A stretch of 64,000 nt of DNA from an uncultured Bifidobacteriaceae bacterium. Its GTDB lineage: Bacteria; Actinomycetota; Acidimicrobiia; IMCC26256; PALSA-555. Shown one piece after another: positions 2,606 through 64,000 of the stretch. The position numbers and the translations under genes are program-made. The DNA lies in contig CAZKTS010000129.1 in NCBI GenBank assembly GCA_964555735.1, positions 624 to 64,623 on the forward strand, written 5' to 3'. Position 1 is the first letter of the stretch, and each line of letters begins with the position of its first letter. The notes below the pieces were generated by a model. That model saw only the letters and a program-made list of their open reading frames with translations, did not search any database and was not told the origin of the DNA.

Positions 2606-3239
2606 CGGCGGCGAAGCCGGCCCGATCGAGGGCGATCTGGAGTCCGTCGTCGTCGTGGTGGATGTCGAGCGACGGGCAGAAGTGGAGCTCGCCGTCGAGC
2701 ACGAACGTGGGCGAGCCGGGGACGCCGAGCGCGCGACCGTGCTCGAGCTCGGCGATGACCTCGGCGCGATCAGCGGCATCCGGGTACGGCAGCCCGTACT
2801 CGTGCGCGATCGCGTCGAGGTGCCGTGGCATGGAGATGTCGACGCCACGCTCGAAGAGGGCCGCGCGCAGCGCAAGGTTGACGCGTTCGCCGGTGGCGGC
2901 ATCGACGTGCGCGGCGTGCGCCGCGAGCGCCAGCGCCGGCAGCGAGGTCAGGGGCCACGTGTTCGGGTCGAAGCCGCGGAACAGCTCGGGCGCCACCGCA
3001 CGTCGGAGTGCTTCGATGTCCGCGGCCGCCGTGGTCGCGGCCAGCGGTGCCCCGTTCACCAGCTCGAGCGGCCAGGCGCGCACCCGCAAGAGCGGGCGGG
3101 ACTGACCGAGCGCGCTCCGACGGTCGACGAGGCGGCGCAGCCCGACGTACGCGAACGGGCAGACCACGTCCGCGTAGACGTCGACGACATCGGGAACCGG
3201 AGGGGCTGCGGCGTCGTCGCGCGGCGGCGTCGCGCTCAC
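2577..3239 (-). CDS. DsbA-family thioredoxin-fold oxidoreductase
   Basis: 220-aa ORF. N-terminal VVDVYADVVCPFAYVG matches the DsbA/2-hydroxychromene-2-carboxylate isomerase-like Cxx motif region. GTG start overlaps the upstream stop (GTGA). Confidence 0.7.
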   Translation of the reverse strand: MSATPPRDDAAAPPVPDVVDVYADVVCPFAYVGLRRLVDRRSALGQSRPLLRVRAWPLELVNGAPLAATTAAADIEALRRAVAPELFRGFDPNTWPLTSLPALALAAHAAHVDAATGERVNLALRAALFERGVDISMPRHLDAIAHEYGLPYPDAADRAEVIAELEHGRALGVPGSPTFVLDGELHFCPSLDIHHDDDGLQIALDRAGFAAVTRRLFGPD

Positions 3240-3439
3240 TGCTCGAGGCGTGCCCGCGCGTCGATGACGGTGACCTGGCGGGGAATGCCGTCGTCGTCGA
3301 TCTCGGCATCGATCTCGTCGACCACCTCGACGGTGGTCGTCTCGATGCCCTCCTCGACGTCCACGGTCACGGTCTCGACCGCGTCGATGACGCCGTCGTC
3401 GTCGAGGTCGAGATAGCGGTGGTCCGTCGATTCGTTCAT
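3236..3439 (-). CDS. 67-aa highly acidic protein with an EF-hand-like loop
   Basis: Internal ATG of the 3236..4195 ORF. ATGA overlap with the upstream gene's stop. Sequence MNESTDHRYLDLDDDGVIDAVE... fits the D-x-D-x-D-G-x-I-x-x-x-E calcium loop. Confidence 0.5.
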   Translation of the reverse strand: MNESTDHRYLDLDDDGVIDAVETVTVDVEEGIETTTVEVVDEIDAEIDDDGIPRQVTVIDARARLEQ

Positions 3440-4773
3440 GAGGCCAGTCCTCTCATCGTCGGGTTGGAACGGCTCGGCAGGTGCCAGGCGAACCAGGTGG
3501 CCGCGGCGTGGGCGACCGCATCGAGCTCGCCTGGGCCTTCGAACAGGTGACCGGCACCCGGCACCACCATCACGTGGTGCCGGCACCGCAGCAGCCGGGT
3601 CGCCTGACGGTTGAGCGCGAGCACCTCGGGGTCGGCCCCGCCGACGATGAGGAGCGTCGGCGCGGTGACCGCTGCGAGCCGGTCGCCGGCGAGATCCACA
3701 CGCCCGCCCCGCGAGACCACGGCGTGGGCGGTGATCCCCGGGTCGGCCGCGGCGCGAAGGGCGGCCGCTGCGCCGGTGCTCGCCCCGAAGAAGCCGACGG
3801 CGTGCGGCCCGATCTCGGCTTCGAGCCAGTGGGTCGCGGCGACCAGGCGACGGGTGAGGAGCTCGATGTCGAAGACGTTCGGGCGGTGCTCGGCCTCGGC
3901 GGGGGTGAGGAGATCGAACAGCAGGGTGCCGACGCGCTCGCGGTGGAGGTGCTCGGCGACCTGGCGGTTGCGGGGGCTCTGCGCGCTGCTGCCGCTGCCG
4001 TGGGCGAAGACGACGACGCCGCGTGCCCCCGCGGGGACGGTGAGGTGCCCCCGGAGCGTGACGCCGTCGACGGCCAGCTCGACGTCGCGATCGATGTCGT
4101 CCTCCGACGCCGGGGCGTCCGGATCGGCGTCCTGGGCTTCGGCGAGGAGACGGATCACCTCGTCGTCGCCAACCTGCGAGAAGTCGCGGTACCACTGGCC
4201 CACCGCGGAGAAGTGGGGCGGCGTCGCGACGCAGATGAAGGCATCGACGATCTGCTCCAGCGCGTCGGCAGTGTCGGGCGCGGCAACGGGCGTGGCGAGC
4301 ACCACGCGGGCTGCGCCACGGTGTCGGGCGATCTCGACCGCGACCCGCGCCGTGCTCCCCGTCGCGATGCCGTCGTCGACGATGATCACCGTGCGGCCCT
4401 GGATGGGAAGCAACGGTCGACCGGCGCGGTACACCTCCCCTCGGCGTTCGAGCTCGTGGCGCTCGCGCGCCTCGACCTCGGCCAGCTCCCGCGCGGTCAC
4501 GTCGATGCTGCGCAGGATCGTGGGCTCCAGCACCCGGCTGCCGTCCTCACCGATCGCGCCCATGGCGAGCTCGGGGTGGAACGGCACGCCCAGCTTGCGC
4601 ACCATCAGGACGTCGAGCGGAGCGCGCAGCCGAGCCGCGACCTCGGCCGCGACGGGCACGCCGCCCCGAGGAAGGGCGAGGACGATCGGACGCTCAGGCG
4701 CGAGCCGATCGAGTTGGGCCGCGAGTGCCTCGCCGGCCTCCCGGCGGTCGGCGAAGGGCAGCCCCGTGCTCAC
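3436..4773 (-). CDS. Phosphoribosyltransferase-like domain fused to dienelactone hydrolase / alpha-beta hydrolase domain
   Basis: 445 aa. N-terminal half has FADRREAG...ALPRGGVPVA...IIVDDGIATG (PRTase fold). C-terminal half has VVFAHGSGSS...GAGHLF (hydrolase). GTGA overlap with the upstream gene. Confidence 0.85.
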   Translation of the reverse strand: MSTGLPFADRREAGEALAAQLDRLAPERPIVLALPRGGVPVAAEVAARLRAPLDVLMVRKLGVPFHPELAMGAIGEDGSRVLEPTILRSIDVTARELAEVEARERHELERRGEVYRAGRPLLPIQGRTVIIVDDGIATGSTARVAVEIARHRGAARVVLATPVAAPDTADALEQIVDAFICVATPPHFSAVGQWYRDFSQVGDDEVIRLLAEAQDADPDAPASEDDIDRDVELAVDGVTLRGHLTVPAGARGVVVFAHGSGSSAQSPRNRQVAEHLHRERVGTLLFDLLTPAEAEHRPNVFDIELLTRRLVAATHWLEAEIGPHAVGFFGASTGAAAALRAAADPGITAHAVVSRGGRVDLAGDRLAAVTAPTLLIVGGADPEVLALNRQATRLLRCRHHVMVVPGAGHLFEGPGELDAVAHAAATWFAWHLPSRSNPTMRGLAS

Positions 4774-24894: not shown

Positions 24895-24928
24895 GCTAGG
24901 ACTCCACAACGTCCAGCCAGACTCATCG

Positions 24929-29111: not shown

Positions 29112-29245
29112 GCCCGCTCCTGTCGTTCGACGCCTACGGTCGAGGAAGACATCGATACTGACAGAGCTGAAGGGGTCTGTGCCGAGCGACGCTTCGAGCA
29201 CCTCGGCGGACGTGCGGGGGGTAGTAGTAGGGACGCGAGTAGGGA
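29112..29245 (-). repeat. Decayed third copy of the tRNA-like repeat element (copy C)
   Basis: Retains AGTAGGGA-CGCG-AGTAGGGA (29226..29245), CCCCCGC, and GATGTCTTCCTCGACCGT (compare GAATGTCTTCCTAAACCGT in A/B). The T-arm is degenerate. The element ends at the AGGAG SD/ATG of the oxidoreductase. Confidence 0.6.
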
Positions 29246-29260
29246 AGGTCAGCGCGTGGT

Positions 29261-29659
29261 TCAGTCGAACCGGACGCGTTCGCGGAGCCACTCCGCGAGC
29301 CACGCCTCGTCCACGTCGTGTGCTGCGACTGCGAGCATCGCTGCTTCGGCGTCGTCGACATCGGGCGGGTCCGGATCCCAGGTCCCGTCGTTGAGGTCGA
29401 CGAAGAGGGTGAGCGCTGCCCAGGCCGCGCGCTTGTTGCCGTCGGGCAGCGGATGGTTCCAGGACAGTCGGCAGGCGAGAACTGCTGCCTTGTCGAAGAG
29501 ATCCGGGTAGAAGTCCTCGTCACCGAAGCCGGCGCTGGGTGCGTGGAGCGCAGAGTCCGCGAGCTCGACGCGTGCTGCTTTCAGCAGCACCGTGGCGTTC
29601 GTGCCGGTGACCTGTTCCGCCAGCCAGAAGTACTCGGCCAGCGACAGGTATCGGGTCAC
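29261..29659 (-). CDS. doc: Doc (death-on-curing) / Fic-family toxin
   Basis: 132 aa with HPLPDGNKRAAW (Doc variant of the Fic motif). ATGA overlap with the upstream antitoxin. Confidence 0.85.
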   Translation of the reverse strand: MTRYLSLAEYFWLAEQVTGTNATVLLKAARVELADSALHAPSAGFGDEDFYPDLFDKAAVLACRLSWNHPLPDGNKRAAWAALTLFVDLNDGTWDPDPPDVDDAEAAMLAVAAHDVDEAWLAEWLRERVRFD

Positions 29660-29865
29660 TTCGCGAGTCGGTCCAAGAGCTCCTGGTCGCGCTCGATCAG
29701 CCGCCGGGCGCGCGTGGTGAAGTCCTTGTCCTCCTTGACCTTGGCGATCTCGGCCTCGAGGGACTCGACGATGAGGGCGTTGACGCTGGTGCCGCGCACT
29801 CGGGCGACGGCCTCGGCCTCGTCGGCGAGGTCGTCGGGGAGCCTGACGGTGGTCTGCTTGGCCAT
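29656..29865 (-). CDS. Ribbon-helix-helix antitoxin (Phd/CopG-like)
   Basis: 69 aa. MAKQTTVRLPDDLADEAEAVARVRGTSVNALIVESL is a typical RHH N-terminus. Confidence 0.75.
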   Translation of the reverse strand: MAKQTTVRLPDDLADEAEAVARVRGTSVNALIVESLEAEIAKVKEDKDFTTRARRLIERDQELLDRLAK

Positions 29866-30378: not shown

Positions 30379-30543
30379 GCGCCCCCGGGAGGATTCGAAC
30401 CTCCGCACACGGTTTAGGAAGACATTCCCGACCGTCCAGCCAGACTCATCGCGTCCAGCACGTGTTGTCCTGTCTCAGGGTACGTCCACCTGGCGACATC
30501 GAGTGTCGTAGCGAGCGGGGAGTAGTAGGGACGCGAGTAGGGA
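30379..30543 (-). ncRNA. tRNA-like repeat element copy A (direct repeat + acceptor-like helix + T-arm); function unknown
   Basis: Minus strand reads TCCCTACT-CGCG-TCCCTACT-ACTCCCCG...ACGGT-CGGGAATGTC-TTCCTAA-ACCGT-GTGC-GGAGG-TTCGAAT-CCTCC-CGGGGGCGC. It is homologous along its whole length to 58266..58432. Confidence 0.55.
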
Positions 30544-30572
30544 CGGTCCGTGTTCTATGGGGTTCGGACAGT

Positions 30573-31034
30573 TCACGACCGAACACTCCATGAAGATTCA
30601 TCGGTTCGCGCCGCCGTAGCGGAGGTCTTGCGACCACGACGCGTGATCACTCGTTGGCGCTTTTCGGGAGGACCTTCCGACTCCAGGCGACCGCACCACA
30701 GCGCGCGCTCACCGAGCTCGAGCACCAGGGTGAGATCGAGCCGACGGTTCGCGACCCGTCGTGAGGGCCTTCGGCGCGCTTCGGCGAGCTTTCGGCGTTG
30801 CGGACGCGTGGTCGTCGGCACACGGCCCACGTGGATGCCCGCGCAATATGGGCATTCGTACGGTTCGGCAGACGAGCCGACGATCGGTTGCACGAAGCTG
30901 TTCCACTCGATCGCCTGGTGTGCCTCTTCGAGCGAGGCGTAGGTGTGCTTGCGCCCACAGGCGGACCACTTTCTGCGTCGCTCACGCCGGCTGACCCGGC
31001 TGCTGCTCGGTGCATCCCGCGCGGAGGTGGTCAC
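30573..31034 (-). CDS. Arg-rich Cys/His (zinc-ribbon-like) protein, paralog 1
   Basis: 153 aa from a GTG. Paralog of 60212..60640, differing mainly by synonymous third-position changes. TACGTT (-10-like) lies exactly 7 nt upstream of the GTG and there is no SD, which suggests a leaderless mRNA. Confidence 0.65.
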   Translation of the reverse strand: MTTSARDAPSSSRVSRRERRRKWSACGRKHTYASLEEAHQAIEWNSFVQPIVGSSAEPYECPYCAGIHVGRVPTTTRPQRRKLAEARRRPSRRVANRRLDLTLVLELGERALWCGRLESEGPPEKRQRVITRRGRKTSATAARTDESSWSVRS

Positions 31035-31133
31035 GAGGGGAAACGTAGAAAAGAGGTGAGACACCCAAAGGCGAATGTATGAGGTGCGAACGGCAGTTCC
31101 GACGAGTCGCGTAACACGGGTATATTCCGGACC

Positions 31134-32674: not shown

Positions 32675-33474
32675 TGACCGTCACCCGACGGGCGGTCGGC
32701 GAGCACGTCGTTGAGCTCACGCTGGATCGCCCGGACCGACTGAACGCCATCTCGTTCGACCTGGTCGGGGATCTCCACGACGCGCTCGATGTGGTCGCCG
32801 GTGACGCTGACTGTCGTGTGGTGACGCTGACCGGCGCGGGCCGGGCCTTCTGCGCCGGGCTCGACCTGCGCGACTACGGCACGCCGCCGGAGCCGGGGGA
32901 CCATCCCCACGCACCGGTGGGAGTCGGCGGTCAGGAGTTCCTCGCCGACCTGATGGTGCATCTGCGGGAGCTGCCCCAGATCGTGATCGCGGCGGTGAAC
33001 GGCCCCGCGTTCGGCGGTGGTCTCTCGCTCGCGTGCGCGGCGGACATCCGGATCGCCGGCGAATCCGCTCGGTTCTGCTCGGCGTTCATCCGGACCGGGC
33101 TCAGCGGGACCGATGCCGGCATCAGCGTGCTGCTGCCACAGGTCATCGGGCCCGGTCCCGCCTTCGAGCTCATCGTCACCGGCCGGGAGGTCGACGCGGT
33201 TGAAGCCGCGCGTCTCGGGTTGGTCAGCCGTGTGGTCCGGGACGACGAGCTCACGCAGACGACCGCCCAGGTCGCGGCGTCGATCGCGGCGTACACGTCG
33301 TACGGGCTCACGCTGACGAAGGAAGCGTTCTGGCACAACGCGACTCGCGGCGATCTCCGGGCGGGGATCGCGTTGGAGAACCGCAACCAGCGGCTCGCGA
33401 GTGCGTCGCCCGAAGTGCAGGCGTACATGGCGACCTACGCGAGCCGGCACAAGAAAAAGGGTGACGACCGATGA
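32674..33474 (+). CDS. Enoyl-CoA hydratase/isomerase (crotonase) family
   Basis: 266 aa. LNAISFDL...TGAGRAFCAGLDL...AAVNGPAFGGG. Confidence 0.85.
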   Translation: MTVTRRAVGEHVVELTLDRPDRLNAISFDLVGDLHDALDVVAGDADCRVVTLTGAGRAFCAGLDLRDYGTPPEPGDHPHAPVGVGGQEFLADLMVHLRELPQIVIAAVNGPAFGGGLSLACAADIRIAGESARFCSAFIRTGLSGTDAGISVLLPQVIGPGPAFELIVTGREVDAVEAARLGLVSRVVRDDELTQTTAQVAASIAAYTSYGLTLTKEAFWHNATRGDLRAGIALENRNQRLASASPEVQAYMATYASRHKKKGDDR

Positions 33475-34649
33475 TCATCGACGTCGACTCGCACTGGGAG
33501 GTCGAGCAGTACGGCGGGGACTTCCCGCTCGAGCCGTGGCGCGACCAGCTCCCGCCGGACCGCCTCGCGGGCATCGCGCACGGTGTCGCCGGCGACCTCC
33601 TCGCGGCGCTGCCGGCTGACCGGCGCCCGTCGCCCGCCGAGCTCTTCCCGGGTTTGCTGCAGATCGCGGATCAGACCGGCGGACCAGCCGTCCTCCATCC
33701 CGTCCACGAGTCGTCGGCGCGGGAGCGCACGGAGTGGATGGACTCGGTCGGCATCGATCACTGCCTGGTGAACCCGGGCGCGTGGTGGCAGATGCTCGAA
33801 TACCTCGGCGACGACCGAGCAGCGGGCGCGAGACGGTGCAACGACTTCCTCACCGAGCAGCTCGCCGATCAGGCCGATCGGCTCCATGCGGTCGCCGTGC
33901 TCGACCTCAGCGATCCCGCCGTCGCGGTCGCCGAGCTCGAGCACGCGCGCAGCCGCGGTGCTCGAGCGTTCTTCCTCTACACGGTCAAGGGCAGGCCCCC
34001 GACGAGGGTCTCGCCCGGCCATCCGAGCTGGGATCCGGTGTGGGAAGCAGCGACGCGCCTCGGGATGCTGGCGGTGATCCACGTCGGGAACACCGCGACC
34101 GACTTCGACGGCTGGGCCGACATCGGCTGGGACGAGGAGTCAGGCGCGGGAGTCTCCGGCATCGTCCGCCTCGCGAACACCCAGCGGTGGCACGCCGCGC
34201 AGAACCTCCTCTCCGCGCTGCTCTACGGTGGCGTGTTCGCACGACACCCGTCGCTCACGGTCCTGCTTGCCGAGCTGCGCATCAACTGGGTGCCACCCTT
34301 CCTCGACACGCTCGCGGCGCAGTCGGAGCCGTCGTTCATCCTCGGCGACTGGCCGTGGGCGACCTCCGGTGCCGACATGTTGCGGGACAACGTGCGCGTC
34401 ACGCCCCTTCCGGGCTTCGGCGACCTGCGCCCACTCGACTACGTGCGCGAGGCGCCCGAGACCTTCGTCTTCTCATCGGACTATCCGCACCACGAGGGCA
34501 ACGCCGATCCCATCGCCCTGTACGGCCCCGAGCTGGACGAGCTCGACGTGACGCTGCGCAACGCCTTCCTCGGCGCCAACATCGCCGGCTGCTTCGAGCG
34601 CATGGGCGACCCGCTGGCCTCTGTCCTCGGGGAGGCGCAAGGAATATAA
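33471..34649 (+). CDS. Amidohydrolase-2 (ACMSD-like) family protein
   Basis: 392 aa. MIIDVDSHWE N-terminal metal motif and C-terminal FSSDYPHHEG. Confidence 0.8.
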   Translation: MIIDVDSHWEVEQYGGDFPLEPWRDQLPPDRLAGIAHGVAGDLLAALPADRRPSPAELFPGLLQIADQTGGPAVLHPVHESSARERTEWMDSVGIDHCLVNPGAWWQMLEYLGDDRAAGARRCNDFLTEQLADQADRLHAVAVLDLSDPAVAVAELEHARSRGARAFFLYTVKGRPPTRVSPGHPSWDPVWEAATRLGMLAVIHVGNTATDFDGWADIGWDEESGAGVSGIVRLANTQRWHAAQNLLSALLYGGVFARHPSLTVLLAELRINWVPPFLDTLAAQSEPSFILGDWPWATSGADMLRDNVRVTPLPGFGDLRPLDYVREAPETFVFSSDYPHHEGNADPIALYGPELDELDVTLRNAFLGANIAGCFERMGDPLASVLGEAQGI

Positions 34650-34700
34650 TGATGTTACGAAACAGCGGCCCGACCTGACGCGGCCGCTCGAGGAGGCACC

Positions 34701-35891
34701 GTGCCGATCATCGATGTCGACGCCCACTTCGAGCCTGCCGACGACTGGCTGGACGAGTTCCCGTCGCTGCGGGACCGCCTGCCGGCGCGCTTCCCGACCG
34801 ACGATCCCCGCTTCACGCTGCGGTCGCCCGAGATGTTCGCCTACTTCGTCAGTGATGACCTGCTGCGCGGCGTCCCGCGTGAGCAGCGCATGCCGATCGA
34901 CCGCATCGTCACCGCGGGGATGCGTGAGCTCTACGACCCGAACCGTGGCCCCGAGACCGGCTACCCGGGCTCCGATCAGCACCTGCCGATGCTCGACATC
35001 GATGCTCGCCTTCGGTGGCTCGACGATCAAGGGATCGACGTGCAGAACGTCATCAGCGGCACGGGGTACACGCTGGCGCGATCGATCGCCGACCCCGCAC
35101 TCGGGATGGAGACGTTGACCGCGGTCAACACGTGGATGAGCGAGCGCGCTGCAGCGGCCGGCGGTCGCCTCATGGTCGCAGCGAACCTGCGGTTCGAGGA
35201 CCTGGACTGGGCCATCGAGGAGCTCACCCGCATGCGCGCGAGCGGCAGCCGCACGTTCCTCTTCCCATCGGAGCCCACGGGTGACACGCCGCCGAACCAT
35301 CCCGACTACGACCGCTTCTGGTCGGCCGTCACCGACCTGGGCATGGTCCCGATCGTGCACGTCGGCCTCAGCCCCGCGATCTACCACCCCGCCTGGGCGA
35401 ACACCGACAACGCTTCGATCATCCGTGCGATCTCCGTCCTGCAACCCGCGCAGCAGGCGCAGGTGTTCCTCAACGCGATGGTGCTCGGCGGCGTCTTCGA
35501 ACGACACCCGAACCTCACCATCGTGTTCGCCGAGCACGGCATCGACTGGATCACCGCGACGACGTTCCGCATGGACGTGCTCGCCTCTCCGGGCGTGAGC
35601 ACGCTGGTGATCCCCGACTACGCGCTGCCGCTGACACCCGTGGAGTACGTCCAGCGCAACGTCCGGGTCACGCCCCTCCCGGTCGCCCATGAGTCGCCGG
35701 TCGAGACGTTCGAGTATCTCCCGACCGTCCCGATCTTCTCCTCCGACTATCCGCACTTCGAGGGCAGCGGTGATCCGATCGGCCACTACGCGAAGGAGCT
35801 GGCGCCATTGGGCGACGACGTGTTGGCGTCGTTCGAAGGCGAGAACCTCGCTGGATGCTTCGCCCGGATGGGTGACCCGATCGCCGCCTGA
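34701..35891 (+). CDS. Amidohydrolase-2 (ACMSD-like) family protein
   Basis: 396 aa. MPIIDVDAHFE and FSSDYPHFEG. Paralogous architecture to the preceding gene. Confidence 0.8.
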   Translation: MPIIDVDAHFEPADDWLDEFPSLRDRLPARFPTDDPRFTLRSPEMFAYFVSDDLLRGVPREQRMPIDRIVTAGMRELYDPNRGPETGYPGSDQHLPMLDIDARLRWLDDQGIDVQNVISGTGYTLARSIADPALGMETLTAVNTWMSERAAAAGGRLMVAANLRFEDLDWAIEELTRMRASGSRTFLFPSEPTGDTPPNHPDYDRFWSAVTDLGMVPIVHVGLSPAIYHPAWANTDNASIIRAISVLQPAQQAQVFLNAMVLGGVFERHPNLTIVFAEHGIDWITATTFRMDVLASPGVSTLVIPDYALPLTPVEYVQRNVRVTPLPVAHESPVETFEYLPTVPIFSSDYPHFEGSGDPIGHYAKELAPLGDDVLASFEGENLAGCFARMGDPIAA

Positions 35892-58265: not shown

Positions 58266-58432
58266 TGGCGCCCCCGGCAGGATTCGAACCTGCGCACACG
58301 GTTTAGGAAGACATTCCCGACCGTCCAGCCAGACCACTCGCGTCCAGCGGGTGTTGTCCTGCTTGATGGTAGGTCCATCTGGTGACGGCGAGTGACGTGG
58401 TGTGCGGGGAGTAGTAGGGACGCGAGTAGGGA
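58266..58432 (-). ncRNA. tRNA-like repeat element copy B (direct repeat + acceptor-like helix + T-arm + encoded CCA); function unknown
   Basis: The minus strand ends ...ACGGT-CGGGAATGTC-TTCCTAA-ACCGT-GTGC-GCAGG-TTCGAAT-CCTGC-CGGGGGC-G-CCA. The 5' part is TCCCTACT-CGCG-TCCCTACT-ACTCCCCG. Its T-stem differs from copy A by a compensatory pair. Confidence 0.55.
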
Positions 58433-58455: not shown

Positions 58456-59178
58456 CTACGGGTTCGACGGTCGGAGGCGCACAATGGCCTCTCGACCAGG
58501 TTGGCCTCCGAGGTCGACTGCCCAGATGTACTGAGGGTGCTGGGAAAGCGACGCGCGGGTCAGTGCGTGTCGCCATGCATCGGTACTTCCGAACACCCAG
58601 TGGATCACTGCAAGGTGGGTCTCATACCCGGCGGCGCCGGCGGCTTCGAGCTTCGGGCTGCAATCGGCAACCGCCGTCAAGAAGCGGTCGTGTGCTTCAG
58701 TGCCGAGCTCGAACTCGGCTGCGGAACGCATCGGGCTGACGATCAGCCTTGGGTTCGTTGCTATCCGAGCGACGCTCAGGTTCCGCGTGATCTTCCGGTC
58801 GCTTGACCGGGCTTGACCGATCTCGATGATCCGGTCGGCAGTCAGTCCGACCAAGCTCTTGAGCTGTTGGCGTGACCCATGATGGAGGGTGACGGCGAAG
58901 TGTCCGGTCAGGGTCGGTGCGCGCTCTTCGACTGCGAGTCGAACGCGTTCGGCAAATTGATCGAACGGTGCCTGGTCTTCGAGCCAGCCGCGATCCCACG
59001 CGCGAGTGACCTCGATGGCGAGGCGCCATCCATCCGTGCGCTCCGCTGCGAAGTCGAACGTCTGACCGGGGTGGCGTGCATTGAGGCCGTCGACGCGTTC
59101 GGGCGGACCGATGAGCTCGCCGAGGTGCGGGGCGAGAAGCGCGAGAGCGTCGTCGCCGCGGTCGTCAATTGCGTTCAT
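58456..59178 (-). CDS. Hypothetical protein (possible PD-(D/E)xK-like nuclease fold, weak)
   Basis: 240-aa ORF in lower-GC DNA. FDFAAE...RLAIEVTR resembles a D...ExK-type motif. A decayed paralog fragment lies at 61420..61575. Confidence 0.55.
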   Translation of the reverse strand: MNAIDDRGDDALALLAPHLGELIGPPERVDGLNARHPGQTFDFAAERTDGWRLAIEVTRAWDRGWLEDQAPFDQFAERVRLAVEERAPTLTGHFAVTLHHGSRQQLKSLVGLTADRIIEIGQARSSDRKITRNLSVARIATNPRLIVSPMRSAAEFELGTEAHDRFLTAVADCSPKLEAAGAAGYETHLAVIHWVFGSTDAWRHALTRASLSQHPQYIWAVDLGGQPGREAIVRLRPSNP

Positions 59179-60035: not shown

Positions 60036-60215
60036 TTAGGGCCTGCGCTCGCGGCCGTCGAGATGCAACGTGTCGCCGTCGAGGTGCAGGCGCTTGATCA
60101 CGTGTGGTGCGGCGTGCTCGGCGCAGATCCGAAGGTTCGTATCGGGGTAGAGCGCCGACGAGTAGTTGTTGACCACGTTTGGACAGGCTTCGACCGAGCA
60201 GTCCATGACGATCAT
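60036..60215 (-). CDS. 59-aa Cys/His micro-protein (hypothetical)
   Basis: ATGA overlap with the stop of paralog 2. Has C6-x4-C11...C31-x2-H34. Too short for the ORF track's real-gene cues. Confidence 0.4.
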   Translation of the reverse strand: MIVMDCSVEACPNVVNNYSSALYPDTNLRICAEHAAPHVIKRLHLDGDTLHLDGRERRP

Positions 60216-60640
60216 CGGTTCGCGGCGGAGGCCTTGCGGCCGCGACGTGCAATCACTCGTTGGCGCTTTTCGGGAGCACCTTCGGACTCGAGGCGACCGC
60301 ACCACACGACTCGCTCGCCGAGCTCGATGACCAGGGCGAGATCGAGCCGACGGTCGGCGACGCGTCGCGAGGGCCGTCGGCGTGCTTCGGAGATCTTCCG
60401 GCGTTGCTGACGTGTTGCCGCCGGCGCACGGCCGACGTGGATGCCGGCGCAGTACGTGCATTCATACGGCTCGGCGGAGGAACCGGCGATCGGCTGCACG
60501 AAGCTGTTCCACTCGATCGCCTCGCGTGCCTCCTCGATCGACGCGTAGGAGTGCTTACGCCCGCAGGCAGACCACCGTCGCCGCAGCTCGCGGCGGCTGA
60601 CCTGACGGCCGCTCGACGCAGTTCGAGTGGAGGTGCTCAC
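60212..60640 (-). CDS. Arg-rich Cys/His (zinc-ribbon-like) protein, paralog 2
   Basis: 142 aa from a GTG. WSACGRKHSYAS...EPYECTYCAGIHVG...RRLDLALVIELGERVVWCGRLE. TACCGT lies exactly 7 nt upstream of the GTG, which suggests a leaderless mRNA. Confidence 0.65.
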   Translation of the reverse strand: MSTSTRTASSGRQVSRRELRRRWSACGRKHSYASIEEAREAIEWNSFVQPIAGSSAEPYECTYCAGIHVGRAPAATRQQRRKISEARRRPSRRVADRRLDLALVIELGERVVWCGRLESEGAPEKRQRVIARRGRKASAANR

Positions 60641-60777
60641 GATGACGACGGTAGAAGCGGGGTGAGACAGTCGAACGACTCTCGCTGCCGGCCCGCCGGT
60701 CCTGGCGTTCGCGAGCCACGCGCGGAAGAGTCTCCCCGGGCCTGCACGGCAACGCCAAAGCCGTCGGCTAGGCAGTT

Positions 60778-61014
60778 TCAGGTCGTGGCCGAATCGCTCC
60801 GCGTGATGGACCAGTCCGGGAACTCGGCCTTGAGCTCGGCGAGCGAGCGAAGGACCTCGGCCTCGTCGTCGGTCCGGGGCCGGGTGATCTGGATCTCGAC
60901 GAAGCGGGTGACGAGACCGAGGCCCCACCACGGACGCCACTGACGTCGGAGGGTGTAGCGGTACTGGTCGTCGCGCGCGTGCGCGATATCGCGCCACTTG
61001 GAGTAGCCGGGCAT
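60778..61014 (-). CDS. Small hypothetical protein (78 aa)
   Basis: ATG preceded by a GGGAGG SD at good spacing. No family recognised. Confidence 0.5.
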   Translation of the reverse strand: MPGYSKWRDIAHARDDQYRYTLRRQWRPWWGLGLVTRFVEIQITRPRTDDEAEVLRSLAELKAEFPDWSITRSDSATT

Positions 61015-61046: not shown

Positions 61047-61256
61047 TCACGACCGCTCCCGCTTGCTTCTCTGTGGACGACGATGGCGCGCCTTGCGCGA
61101 CCTGCCCAGGGGCCGCTGTCGGACGCCGCACTCCTGCAGGTAGTACTCCCAGAAGTGGTGCTCGCACCAGTCTGCAAGTTCGTGTGAGCGCTCGAGGATC
61201 TCTTCGCGCGTCCAGTGGTCGCCTTCGGGCTCAGGTGGCTCCGGCACACTTGGCAC
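61047..61256 (-). CDS. Small hypothetical protein with Arg-rich tail (69 aa)
   Basis: ORF immediately upstream of 60778..61014 on the same strand. Composition is plausible, but there is no SD or homology support. Confidence 0.3.
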   Translation of the reverse strand: MPSVPEPPEPEGDHWTREEILERSHELADWCEHHFWEYYLQECGVRQRPLGRSRKARHRRPQRSKRERS

Positions 61257-61419: not shown

Positions 61420-61575
61420 GTCTTGCTGCCGCTATGAGCTCGAACTCGGCCGTGGAACGCATCGCGCTGCCGACCAGGCTTGGGGGTCGTTGCGATCCGA
61501 GCGACACTTAGGTTCGCGTGATCCTCCAGCCCTTGACAGGCGTTGACCGATCTCGATGATCCGGTCGTCATCGTT
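61420..61575 (-). pseudogene. Frameshifted fragment paralogous to the 3' half of 58456..59178
   Basis: The DNA aligns by eye with 58690..58850 (e.g. gaccgatctcgatgatccggtcg is shared). The homologous peptide (RIIEIGQ / NLSVARIAT) is split over two frames. Confidence 0.5.
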
Positions 61576-61912: not shown

Positions 61913-62353
61913 CTACTGGACGACGATCGTGCCCTTCATGCCAGCAGCGCGGTGTCCTTCGACGGTGCACCAGAACTTGTAGGTGCCGGGCTCCTCGATC
62001 ATGAGACCGCCCTTCTTGGTCTTCTTCGCCTTCGCGCCGACGACATGGCCGGTGCCCTTTACGAAGAAGTCATGGAACAAGTCCTTCGACGACAGGACGA
62101 TGGTCACATCTTCGCCCGCGCCGACCGTGATCTCGTTCGGCTTGAAGCGAAAGCGTCCTGCTGTTACGTCGATCTCTCGCGCGCCGGTGGCCGTCGGAGT
62201 GTTCGTGTGGCTGCTTCCGCCGCCGCCGTGTTCGTCCATGCCGCCGTGGTCATCCATGCTCCCACCATGTCCGCCGTCTTCTCCTGCGAAGGCTGCGACA
62301 GGTGCGAACGTCGCGGTTGTCGCGATCGCGATCGCGATGAGAATCCTCTTCAT
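61913..62353 (-). CDS. Secreted cupredoxin (plastocyanin/azurin-like) copper protein with His/Met-rich N-terminal region
   Basis: Signal peptide MKRILIAIAIATTATFAPVAAFA. GHGGSMDDHGGMDEHGGGG. Type-1 Cu ligands H...C-x4-H-x4-M (FWCTVEGHRAAGM). AAGGAG SD. Confidence 0.8.
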   Translation of the reverse strand: MKRILIAIAIATTATFAPVAAFAGEDGGHGGSMDDHGGMDEHGGGGSSHTNTPTATGAREIDVTAGRFRFKPNEITVGAGEDVTIVLSSKDLFHDFFVKGTGHVVGAKAKKTKKGGLMIEEPGTYKFWCTVEGHRAAGMKGTIVVQ

Positions 62354-62401
62354 GTCGATCTCCTTTGAGATGAGGCCGAGTGTCAAGTCATCTCGAAGAG
62401 A

Positions 62402-62773
62402 TCAACAGCGCATCGCGACTCCGAGAAGGGTTGCGTCTGGGGATCGACCTACGGGCGTTGGGCGGGTGGCTCTCGGCCCGATCGAACCGCGCCATACCGC
62501 TCGCGGTTGGCGCAGTCGCAGGAAGAGTCGCTTGCACGCCGCGACGACGATCCCGGCGGCGATGATCCAGAGGCAGAGCTCGCCGACCGTGTGCATTGCA
62601 TTGGGCTCGTGGCCGCCGCTGTCATGGGAGTCTGCGCCGAGAGCGTCGACTGTTGTTGCCACGGAATCGTGCATTCCGCTGGCGGTCGCCGTAGAGAGAC
62701 CGTGCATGCTGAGCACGCCGGCAGCGAGCACGACGATGAGGAAAGCGCGTCGGAGCCGGATCGACGACAACAT
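62402..62773 (-). CDS. Small membrane protein (DUF6153-like, frequently copper-locus associated)
   Basis: 123 aa. N-terminal TM with LSMHGL, a His-rich middle and a second TM. Confidence 0.5.
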   Translation of the reverse strand: MLSSIRLRRAFLIVVLAAGVLSMHGLSTATASGMHDSVATTVDALGADSHDSGGHEPNAMHTVGELCLWIIAAGIVVAACKRLFLRLRQPRAVWRGSIGPRATRPTPVGRSPDATLLGVAMRC

Positions 62774-62831
62774 GTAGGAGAGCCTATCGCCCTACAAGCC
62801 TCCGGTTCGACGCGGATGCGAGACTCGAGGC

Positions 62832-63497
62832 ATGGCAGATGATGCAAGCGAGGGCGCGGTGCTCTTCGCCGACCTGTCAGGGTTCACGGCGCTCACCGAG
62901 GCGCACGGTGATGGCGCCGCGGCAGACATCGCGGATCGTTTCTCCCGCCTCGCCTCCTCCGTGATCGGAGGCGATGGCCGGGTGGTGAAGACGATCGGCG
63001 ACGCTGTCATGGTCGCGACGGCTGACAGCCGGAGCGGCCTGAAAGTCGCGGTTGCGCTCCTGCACGCGGTCGATGCGGAGCCGGCCTTCCCGGGCGTGCG
63101 AATCGGGGCGCACGCCGGTCCTGTGGTCGAGCGTGCGGGCGATCTCTTCGGTGCCACCGTGAACCTTGCTGCTCGGGTCGCAGGGCATGCGCACGTGGGC
63201 CAGGCGCTCGTGACGATGCCGATCGCGAGCTGTGTGAGTCCGCACGATGGCGTTCGAGTCCGTCGCTTGGGTTCCACGTATCTCAGGAACGTCTCGCAGC
63301 CGGTGGAGCTGTTCTCCGTTGAGGATCTCTTCTACGAGCCGCGAGCTCAGGTGTTGGATCCGGTGTGTCGGATGTTCGTCGATGCGGACGAGGCGCCAGC
63401 GCAGTTGCCATGGGCAGATCGTGTGTGGCGCTTCTGCTCGTTCGAATGCGCGCGCGCCTTCAGCGAGGAGCCGGACCGGTACTCCTCACCAGCGTGA
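62832..63497 (+). CDS. Class III adenylate/guanylate cyclase domain fused to a C-terminal YHS (metal-binding) domain
   Basis: VLFADLSGFT and KTIGDAVM metal-binding Asp motifs plus GATVNLAAR. C-terminal DPVCRMFVD...FCSFECARAF is the YHS/TRASH-like signature. Confidence 0.8.
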   Translation: MADDASEGAVLFADLSGFTALTEAHGDGAAADIADRFSRLASSVIGGDGRVVKTIGDAVMVATADSRSGLKVAVALLHAVDAEPAFPGVRIGAHAGPVVERAGDLFGATVNLAARVAGHAHVGQALVTMPIASCVSPHDGVRVRRLGSTYLRNVSQPVELFSVEDLFYEPRAQVLDPVCRMFVDADEAPAQLPWADRVWRFCSFECARAFSEEPDRYSSPA

Positions 63498-63504
63498 AAA
63501 CGAC

Positions 63505-64000
63505 TTAGGCCACCTCGCGCTGAGACGCGAACGCCTCGGCTGGCGGCGGCGCGATCTTGGTGACCTCCGTGCCGGGATCCGGAAGATGGAGTCGCTTCAA
63601 CATCAGCGCGTTGACGGCGACGATGAAGCTCGAACCCGACATGCTGAGTGCGGCAATTTCGGGACGGAGAACGAGCCCGAACATCGGGTCGAACACGCCA
63701 GCCGCGATTGGAAGCGCGATCGCGTTGTAACCGATTGCCCAGCCGAGGTTCTGGCGCATCTTCCGCAGAGTGCCTCGACCAATGCTGAGCGCTGTTGGGA
63801 TGTCGAGGGGGTCGGAGCGCATGAGTACGACGTCGGCAGTCTCGATCGCGACATCAGTACCCGCGCCGATGGCGATGCCGAGGTCGGCCTGCGCGAGGGC
63901 TGGTGCGTCGTTGACGCCGTCGCCGACCATCGCAACCTTTGAGCCGTCGCGTTGGAGCTCTGCGATCTTGGCGGCCTTGTCGCCCGGCAGAACCTCCGCA
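63505..64000 (-). CDS. Heavy-metal (copper) P1B-type ATPase, C-terminal part (gene continues beyond the window)
   Basis: [37 protein letters not shown]. The reading frame stays open to position 64000 (…[27 protein letters not shown]). Confidence 0.9.

Follow-up and report, generated by a model that had tools for sequence, protein, structure and literature searches.

Two copies of a probable phage-derived Cys/His-knuckle gene beside putative tRNA-Arg(CCU) integration scars in an Acidimicrobiia-like genome

The stretch of DNA analysed here (the window: 64,000 nucleotides, positions 624 to 64,623 of contig CAZKTS010000129.1, assembly GCA_964555735.1) carries two copies of a small gene, which we call gene A (A1 and A2), each upstream of a copy of a 165-bp repeat that ends in a piece of tRNA-Arg(CCU). 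Our favoured reading, to which we give a probability of about 0.6 as a whole, is that A1 and A2 belong to phage-derived cargo blocks at the ends of genomic islands, and that the 165-bp elements are attachment-site (att) scars in tRNA-Arg(CCU). According to this scheme, a genomic island or prophage would integrate into a tRNA-Arg(CCU) gene by a crossover in the anticodon loop, and the junction scar would consist of about 123 nt of element-derived arm DNA plus a 42-nt displaced 3' fragment of the tRNA. The ancestral unit would have read promoter-A-B-C-D-arm-fragment, all of which copy 2 would retain, while in copy 1 one deletion of about 1.7 kb would have removed most of gene B, all of C and nearly all of D, sparing gene A. 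Each copy of gene A would be the first gene of a cargo block at the far (attR-type) end of an island or prophage remnant, and its product, of about 150 residues, would be a phage-derived protein with a metal module, Arg-rich flanks and a three-helix C-terminal module. The features that carry this reading are the following.

30573..31034, minus strand: gene A1, 153 aa, GTG start; predicted zinc knuckle, Arg-rich tracts, C-terminal helical module
60212..60640, minus strand: gene A2, paralog of A1, 142 aa, GTG start; leads the A-B-C-D block
31035..31063, minus strand: A1 upstream region, conserved 29 nt, TGTCTCACC-N7-TACGTT-N7-GTG; the repeat unit begins here
60641..60669, minus strand: A2 upstream region, conserved 29 nt, TGTCTCACC-N7-TACCGT-N7-GTG
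30421..30543, minus strand: arm of element 1, with CCCTACT twice and TGGAC three times; 85% identical to arm 2
30379..30420, minus strand: tRNA-Arg(CCU) 3' fragment of element 1, from anticodon loop to discriminator; T-stem GGAGG/CCTCC
58310..58432, minus strand: arm of att-like element 2
58268..58309, minus strand: tRNA-Arg(CCU) 3' fragment of element 2; T-stem GCAGG/CCTGC, then CCA

Gene A copies and their start region

An earlier reading of these letters (the original prediction) had described the two genes as paralogs about four-fifths identical by eye. A self-BLAST of the window agrees with it, aligning 30562-31063 with 60177-60669 at 80.3% DNA identity, and the two proteins are 77% identical. 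The synonymous changes that it had listed in the core SSAEPYEC.YCAGIHVG (TCG/TCC, GAA/GAG, TAC/TAT, TAT/TAC, GCG/GCC, GTG/GTC) can be read directly in both copies. The purifying selection deduced from them was upheld by calculation: the Nei-Gojobori dN/dS between A1 and A2 is 0.225 over the gene and 0.15 in the core. A third homolog, in metagenome contig L001, gave 0.19-0.20 by the same method, and across all three gene A pairs the ratio ranges from 0.15 to 0.23, with third codon positions richest in differences. Identity between A1 and A2 at the first, second and third codon positions is 83%, 93% and 71%, respectively, and at fourfold-degenerate sites it is 60% (dS = 0.56). From dN/dS together with the codon-position pattern we conclude that A1 and A2 are genuine protein-coding genes, kept by purifying selection in this frame. 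The final ~10 codons of A1 are a read-through into the remnant of the start of gene B. The G+C content at third codon positions (GC3) of the A genes is 0.71-0.77, versus 0.80-0.93 in the presumed host open reading frames (ORFs), a set defined by passing a GC3 > 0.8 filter.

Gene A is apparently unannotated in public data. In a public contig that is 100% identical to copy 2 (L135), the A2 ORF (L135 331-756) was not called, and the A proteins of the window are absent from a collection of 5.8 billion protein clusters in which gene C of the same genome is present (P0025, NCBI).

The prediction that a TAnnnT hexamer lies exactly 7 nt before the GTG start, with no Shine-Dalgarno (SD) sequence, proved accurate for both copies (TACGTT in A1, TACCGT in A2); gene C, by contrast, is preceded by AAGGAG. 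TAnnnT occurs in the window at a rate of 3.4e-4 per position, and a hexamer placed 6-8 nt before a start would be expected in about 0.1% of cases. Actinobacteria are known for TANNNT -10 promoters lacking a -35 box and for abundant leaderless mRNAs (PMC3898074), and the arrangement described there, TANNNT about 6-12 nt before the start and no SD, is found in A1, A2 and the L001 homolog. The latter reads TGTCTCACC-N7-TAGTTT-N8-ATG. Its ATG precedes the called start by 27 nt in the same frame, and initiation there gives the same N-terminal length as in the window proteins. The hexamer spacing and the missing SD fit the leaderless start that had been predicted, and on these grounds we regard a -10-only promoter, producing a leaderless GTG-initiated mRNA, as plausible but unproven.

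The motif TGTCTCACC (31054-31063, 60660-60669 and L001 ~679-687) stands exactly 7 nt before the -10-like hexamer in 3/3 gene A loci. Since it falls in a different reading frame in L001, we read it as a signal in the DNA itself: an operator, or else the boundary of the repeat unit.

The protein A family and its phage setting

An exhaustive HMMER search of 1.84 billion (1.84e9) representatives returned 20 clusters related to protein A, all of them unnamed metagenome proteins, and a word-indexed search of the 5.8 billion clusters returned two relatives. In an alignment of 21 sequences Y59 is invariant and C26, K29, A38, C61, C64 and H68 are conserved in at least 90% of the members. The candidate metal ligands are C26, C61, C64 and H68, in the pattern C-x34-C-x2-C-x3-H. 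Of the motif originally proposed, C-x3-H ... C-x2-C-x3-H, the second half is therefore conserved across the family, while the first half is not, as H30 varies. A C-terminal module (D..lG.RA..CG..ES.G..kR) is present in about 12 of the 21 members, and the others are single-module proteins of 65-95 aa.

The AlphaFold2 model of protein A (pLDDT 82.8, and >90 over residues 20-70, knuckle included) comprises two helices, a beta-hairpin with the CxxC, a basic linker and three helices. The CxxC sits between strands 56-60 and 67-71, where pLDDT is also >90, and alignment and model together place the four conserved ligands around a beta-hairpin knuckle, as in zinc ribbons and knuckles. The protein has a pI of 11.3. 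Arg makes up 18-20% of it and clusters in residues 1-22, 72-98 and 123-150. The expectation of a Cys/His knuckle flanked by Arg-rich tracts is borne out by these data. The N-terminal module would hold one metal ion, probably Zn, through C26, C61, C64 and H68. Charge and architecture mark protein A as a likely nucleic-acid binder, and its most likely role is that of a small regulator of mobile-element genes.

Neither A1 nor A2 matched Pfam, NCBIfam or PADLOC, in keeping with the earlier failure to place them in a named family, and Pfam run over all 21 members gave scattered noise and nothing more. Phage collections were more informative. When the members were scanned against PHROG, phrog_15216 was found in 14/21 (best 1.3e-7) and phrog_14788 in 11/21 (best 1.2e-11), which links the N-terminal module to these two uncharacterised families; the window proteins themselves match phrog_14788 weakly (E = 0.015-0.062), so that their PHROG link is transitive, via the family members. 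A Foldseek search of BFVD with the model retrieved several small uncharacterised phage proteins (48-124 aa) with probability ~1.0 and E values from 1e-3 to 0.5. These superpose with a root-mean-square deviation of 1.6-2.1 Å over 41-54 alignment columns, a region that we take as the knuckle, and include proteins from Pseudomonas phage Persinger (A0A7D7J6W6), Mycobacterium phages Thonko and Dylan, and Clavibacter phage CN1A. The PHROG 15216/14788 and BFVD relatives resemble protein A in a fold that we take to be a helix-helix-beta-hairpin knuckle of the form C...CxxCxxxH, and the PHROG relatives are phage-borne, as are the homologs of protein A. What distinguishes protein A from these 50-95-aa phage proteins is the extra Arg-rich linker and the C-terminal helical module. 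We therefore describe it as a rare two-module member of a recurrent, uncharacterised phage zinc-knuckle fold, with an added basic and helical C-terminal half.

The neighbours of the homologs also speak of phages. In L130 and L003 the homolog precedes the large terminase gene (TerL) by 2-7 genes, in the company of small ORFs and a WhiB protein; the WhiB-like protein in L130 is three genes downstream of the gene A homolog. The two-module member P0004 is one of a series of closely packed small genes on one strand, among whose products are a WhiB-domain protein and an RNase E-like protein, and it lies seven genes upstream of a large terminase. The one-module P0022 is two genes upstream of the large terminase, on a contig that also encodes a prohead protease. 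P0024 is preceded by an HNH endonuclease gene; in L002 the upstream neighbour is an HNH gene. One short family member matched a single further sequence, an unannotated ORF in the early region of Bordetella phage PY223, unlike member P0014, which as a query returned nothing. A tblastn of A1 against annotated phages and plasmids found nothing either, and a search with the family alignment found no loci in GTDB genomes, JGI metagenomes or IMG/VR. Judged by its relatives and their neighbourhoods, gene A is of phage origin.

Three groups of known proteins invite comparison. P2 Ogr and P4 Delta are small, basic, phage-encoded transcription regulators with a single zinc site, located before late genes, and their site is a Cys4 of the form C-x2-C-x22-C-x4-C; we found no sequence or fold match between them and protein A, and the resemblance is by analogy only. 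WhiB-like (Wbl) proteins, which are frequent in the early regions of actinophages, resemble protein A in being small, in containing Cys and in having basic tails. However, they hold a 4Fe-4S cluster through four Cys and belong to Pfam PF02467, whereas protein A has a Cys3His ligand set and no match to PF02467 at E <= 10. Finally, the Xis, AlpA and HTH_17 excisionases are small, basic, encoded by mobile elements and active near att sites, as protein A might be, but protein A has no profile or fold match to them, its architecture is not that of a winged helix and its gene is not beside an integrase. No Pfam, NCBIfam or PHROG excisionase match appeared in any of the 21 members, and the identity as an excisionase or recombination directionality factor (RDF), which the original prediction had considered as a way in which it might be wrong, finds no backing here.

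The 165-bp element and the repeat unit

The two full copies of the element (30379-30543 and 58268-58432) are 165 bp long and 87.9% identical. When aligned with real tRNA-Arg(CCU), the last 42 nt are identical to it from the first anticodon-loop base to the discriminator, and no tRNA similarity is found upstream of this block. The similarity between the element copies ends exactly after ...CCGGGGGCGC, that is, at the discriminator and tRNA 3' end. According to the Islander principle, a displaced 3' fragment of a tRNA gene (tDNA) marks the end of an island, and attP sites centred on the anticodon are the commonest class (PMC4383910); the fragments in the window, identical to the 3' part of the tRNA and ending at its 3' end, have this form. 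We scanned metagenomes with the 34-nt 3' block and obtained at least 120 loci, 51 of which were run through ARAGORN. Among the matches listed, 39 of these 51 loci had the block within a real tRNA-Arg gene, with a CCT or CCG anticodon, and a few loci had an intact tRNA together with a displaced fragment some kb away.

The 123-nt arm that makes up the rest of the element is rich in short direct repeats. TGGAC occurs 3 times per window arm and 5-6 times per arm in L008, an Acidimicrobiia metagenome-assembled genome (MAG), versus ~0.12 expected. CCCTA[C/G]T occurs twice per arm, and all 6 of its occurrences in the window lie in the three arm copies, the third being a partial one described below. 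By these counts the repeats would be of arm type, that is, putative protein-binding sites. The arms are 85% identical, against 60% at the fourfold-degenerate sites of the A genes next door, which indicates that they are constrained. A 19-nt exact match to part of arm 1 (the GCTGGACGCGATGAGTC region) is found at 24910-24928, inside an ordinary gene, probably by chance.

The sequence argues for the element being an integrase att scar, an attR-type junction of arm DNA with a displaced tRNA-Arg(CCU) 3' fragment, and not an RNA gene; the "tRNA-like element" of the original prediction does not survive as a tRNA-like entity, as both ARAGORN and Rfam were negative for it. The resemblance to islands and prophages of the tDNA type (lambda-type attP with arm-type sites) includes the 3' fragment starting at the anticodon loop, its orientation at the island end, arm DNA with short direct repeats, low-GC cargo and toxin-antitoxin (TA) neighbours. 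Unlike typical cases, the window has no visible cognate tRNA or integrase, the arms are unusually conserved between copies, and the two scars are 28 kb apart with ordinary-looking genes between them.

The genes between A2 and element 2, together with the remains of related sequences elsewhere in the window, are as follows.

60036..60215, minus strand: gene B, a 59-aa Cys/His ORF with an ATGA overlap with A2; 68% identical to the one next to gene A in L001
59188..60024, minus strand: gene C, 278 aa, AAGGAG SD; PIN-like candidate
58456..59178, minus strand: gene D, 240 aa, no family match; last gene before element 2
30562..30601, minus strand: gene B remnant of copy 1, the first ~35 nt of B; left edge of the ~1.7-kb deletion
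61436..61570, minus strand: D-like (D') frameshifted fragment, 85% identical to 58705-58840; upstream of the block
29218..29250, minus strand: third, partial arm copy, the 5' 32 nt only; just after the Doc toxin gene

Genes B, C and D (~1.78 kb) separate gene A from the element in copy 2. The alignment between the two copies starts 29 nt ahead of gene A, breaks off ~35 nt into B, resumes at the last dozen bases of D and continues with the arm. Copy 1 is therefore the copy 2 layout (A-B-C-D-att) minus a single clean deletion of ~1.7 kb that left gene A intact. L001 keeps A and B with the same ATGA overlap (B at L001 1140-1319), plus a stub of C.

The linkage of gene A to the element was part of the original prediction, which had each gene lying upstream of, and on the same strand as, an element. 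This is so in both copies, although in copy 2 genes B, C and D come in between. The specific tie that had been proposed is not sustained. In L008 the element occurs twice, after unrelated TA cassettes and without gene A, and gene A or the arm was found in 0 of 120 tRNA-Arg loci, among the matches listed. Conversely, L001 and the phage contigs, which are short (1.2-10.7 kb), carry a gene A homolog and no element. Since the element is found without gene A and gene A without the element, their linkage appears, as far as such short contigs can show, to be positional, that of island-end cargo, and the two would not form a dedicated functional pair. The neighbourhood comparison thus essentially gives the outcome that was to count against the original prediction, homologs without linkage to the repeat, with the difference that these homologs are rare rather than widespread.

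Gene B has the Cys/His pattern C-x3-C...C-x2-H and no family match, and the ATGA overlap couples its translation to that of gene A. The gene C family comprises at least 71 clusters of unnamed, ~280-aa proteins; D15, E55, D223 and D226 are invariant in 32 sequences, and the consensus N-terminus contains LLDTN. Its AlphaFold2 model has a pLDDT of 91.7 and matches the PIN structures Utp24, VapC20 and SMG6 at E = 0.5-1 only, and Pfam gave no PIN match for gene C. On the model, gene C may represent a new PIN-like family with a large helical insertion. C was also considered as a constant partner of gene A and discarded, as C homologs (70-odd clusters) occur solo, without A, B or D. No match to NCBIfam or to PDB sequences was obtained for B, C or D, and in PADLOC none of A1, A2, B, C, D, u78 and u69 had a match at E <= 1. 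The D' fragment lies upstream of small ORFs at 61047-61256 and 60778-61014, and looks like debris of repeated insertion or duplication.

At 58.2 kb GC content falls to 0.60-0.66 and stays there until the window ends. The region 61913-64000 encodes a cupredoxin, a membrane protein and a cyclase-like protein whose C-terminus is of the YHS/TRASH type, as well as the C-terminal part of a P-type ATPase. This copper-handling block, which runs off the window, is probably cargo of the same island, and copy 2 looks like the far end of an island that continues past 64 kb. Copy 1 is a small remnant beside an RHH-Doc TA pair (29261-29865, minus strand), which sits between att-like element 1 and the third, 5'-only arm copy. 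The order element, RHH, Doc recurs in L008 (6510-7271), which suggests an orthologous junction and gives a hint of the taxonomy of the window. At 2684-3605 and 5808-6672 of L008, elements made of arm and tRNA-Arg fragment directly follow TA-type cassettes (AbrB+PIN; Phd+toxin); this layout resembles a cassette array, with no tRNA within the 8 kb examined. Elsewhere in the window, the adjacent ORFs 33465-34649 (amidohydrolase, PF04909) and 34653-35891 resemble tandem paralogs, and a 65% DNA match links 34207-34619 to 35467-35885.

Weighing the alternatives

Several observations count against the reading of A1 and A2 as phage-derived cargo at the ends of tRNA-Arg(CCU) islands. The direct PHROG match of the window proteins is weak (E = 0.015-0.06). 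Protein A has no significant PDB match by fold or sequence: Foldseek against PDB gave nothing below E = 0.17, and a PDB sequence search with two profiles gave nothing or the zinc-ribbon knuckle of eL43 at E = 0.07. A scan for the sigma-70 consensus detected no promoter for gene A. The 27 kb between the scars consist of ordinary-looking metabolic genes of high GC3. An intact tRNA-Arg, the 5' half of a tRNA and the signature of an integrase are all missing from the 64 kb, so that it is from the scars only that an island can be read. In 58.2-64 kb and near 30-31 kb we found no tyrosine-recombinase motif and no suitably sized ORF; either these are remnants only, or the integrase lies beyond the window. 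Likewise, no cognate intact tDNA is present in the window, and its predicted position is beyond 64000.

The two copies could instead have arisen by intrachromosomal segmental duplication of one A-B-C-D-att block, as opposed to tandem accretion of related elements. Both copies share the whole unit in colinear order, starting 29 nt ahead of gene A and ending with the tRNA fragment, and the arms are more alike within one genome than across genomes, as would suit a duplication. Yet the two elements carry different T-stem variants, each of which exists in real tRNAs, a situation predicted by tandem integration and not by simple duplication. The divergence is also deep (dS = 0.56), and the third partial arm and the D' fragment indicate repeated events. 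Tandem island arrays have been documented in the Islander survey (PMC4383910). On balance we hold a segmental duplication to be unlikely.

A different possibility is that gene A encodes a dedicated att-arm-binding factor, a zinc-finger RDF or architectural protein that would read TGGAC or CCCTA[C/G]T and control excision or integration. Its appeal is that at both scars of the window gene A is found on the side of the arm, that the arms are constrained (85% versus 60% at neutral sites), that protein A is small, very basic and probably DNA-binding, and that A1 remained intact and under selection after the loss of B-D. But the element is found twice in L008 with no nearby gene A, while the homologs in L001 and in the phage contigs, short as these are, have no arm or tRNA fragment. 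In phages gene A is near the terminase and not near int or att, the family has no excisionase or helix-turn-helix (HTH) match, and the window has no integrase with which it could cooperate. We consider such a role quite doubtful. Lower still are the odds that we would give to a broader proposal along the same line, in which protein A would open a new class of DNA-binding proteins in actinobacterial phages and islands, built of two modules with a zinc finger, and would recognise the TGGAC / CCCTA[C/G]T arm repeats or its own TGTCTCACC motif. It would then serve elements that integrate into tRNA-Arg(CCU), either as a recombination directionality or architectural factor of an unconventional kind or as a regulator of the lysogenic stage. 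If true, it would explain why A1 persists intact beside the arm after the deletion of the block.

A-B-C-D might also be a TA-like or defence module, in which C would be a PIN-like nuclease and A, together with B, its antidote or DNA-binding regulator. The invariant D15, E55, D223 and D226 of the gene C family and its weak PIN-fold matches, the tight coupling of A and B by the ATGA overlap and the TA systems among the cassettes that neighbour these scars are all compatible with it. However, PADLOC, Pfam and NCBIfam were negative, the PIN-fold matches are non-significant (E = 0.5-1), C homologs elsewhere stand solo without A, B and D, the phage homologs of gene A come without C, and A1 persists under selection in the absence of C. 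We regard this module as improbable.

The 165-bp element is very improbable as a functional tRNA-like RNA, for instance one transcribed together with the gene A operon that would act in processing or stability as part of its 3'-UTR: although it lies on the same strand and directly downstream in both copies, its T-stem difference is compensatory and copy 2 folds better than shuffled sequences (z = -2.2), tRNA similarity starts only at the anticodon loop with no 5' half, copy 1 folds no better than shuffles (z = 0.06), both T-stem variants are inherited from real tRNAs, ARAGORN and Rfam found no such RNA, and the element also follows unrelated cassettes in L008. In the searches for a tRNA, tmRNA or Rfam RNA, ARAGORN called 0 genes and Rfam no tRNA; the Rfam tRNA model matched the T-arm only, at 13.6 bits versus a threshold of 29 bits, and the element contains only the T-arm and the acceptor 3' strand of a tRNA. 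We likewise set aside a stable RNA fold, for which the comparison with shuffles is inconsistent between the copies, and the G:C to C:G swap in the T-stem as RNA covariation, since both variants occur in real tRNA-Arg genes.

With A1 and A2 as phage-derived cargo and the elements as att scars, the odd pairing of a gene with a "tRNA-like repeat" becomes readable mobile-element anatomy, in which the repeats would be scars left in an Acidimicrobiia-like genome by elements that target tRNA-Arg(CCU). Two selectively maintained genes seem to escape public gene callers, and the likely causes are the leaderless GTG start, the absence of a ribosome-binding site and the atypical composition. A rare two-module architecture is now attached to an uncharacterised phage zinc-knuckle fold, and if the function of this fold is determined, PHROGs 15216 and 14788 would gain an annotation, along with many small ORFs of actinophages.

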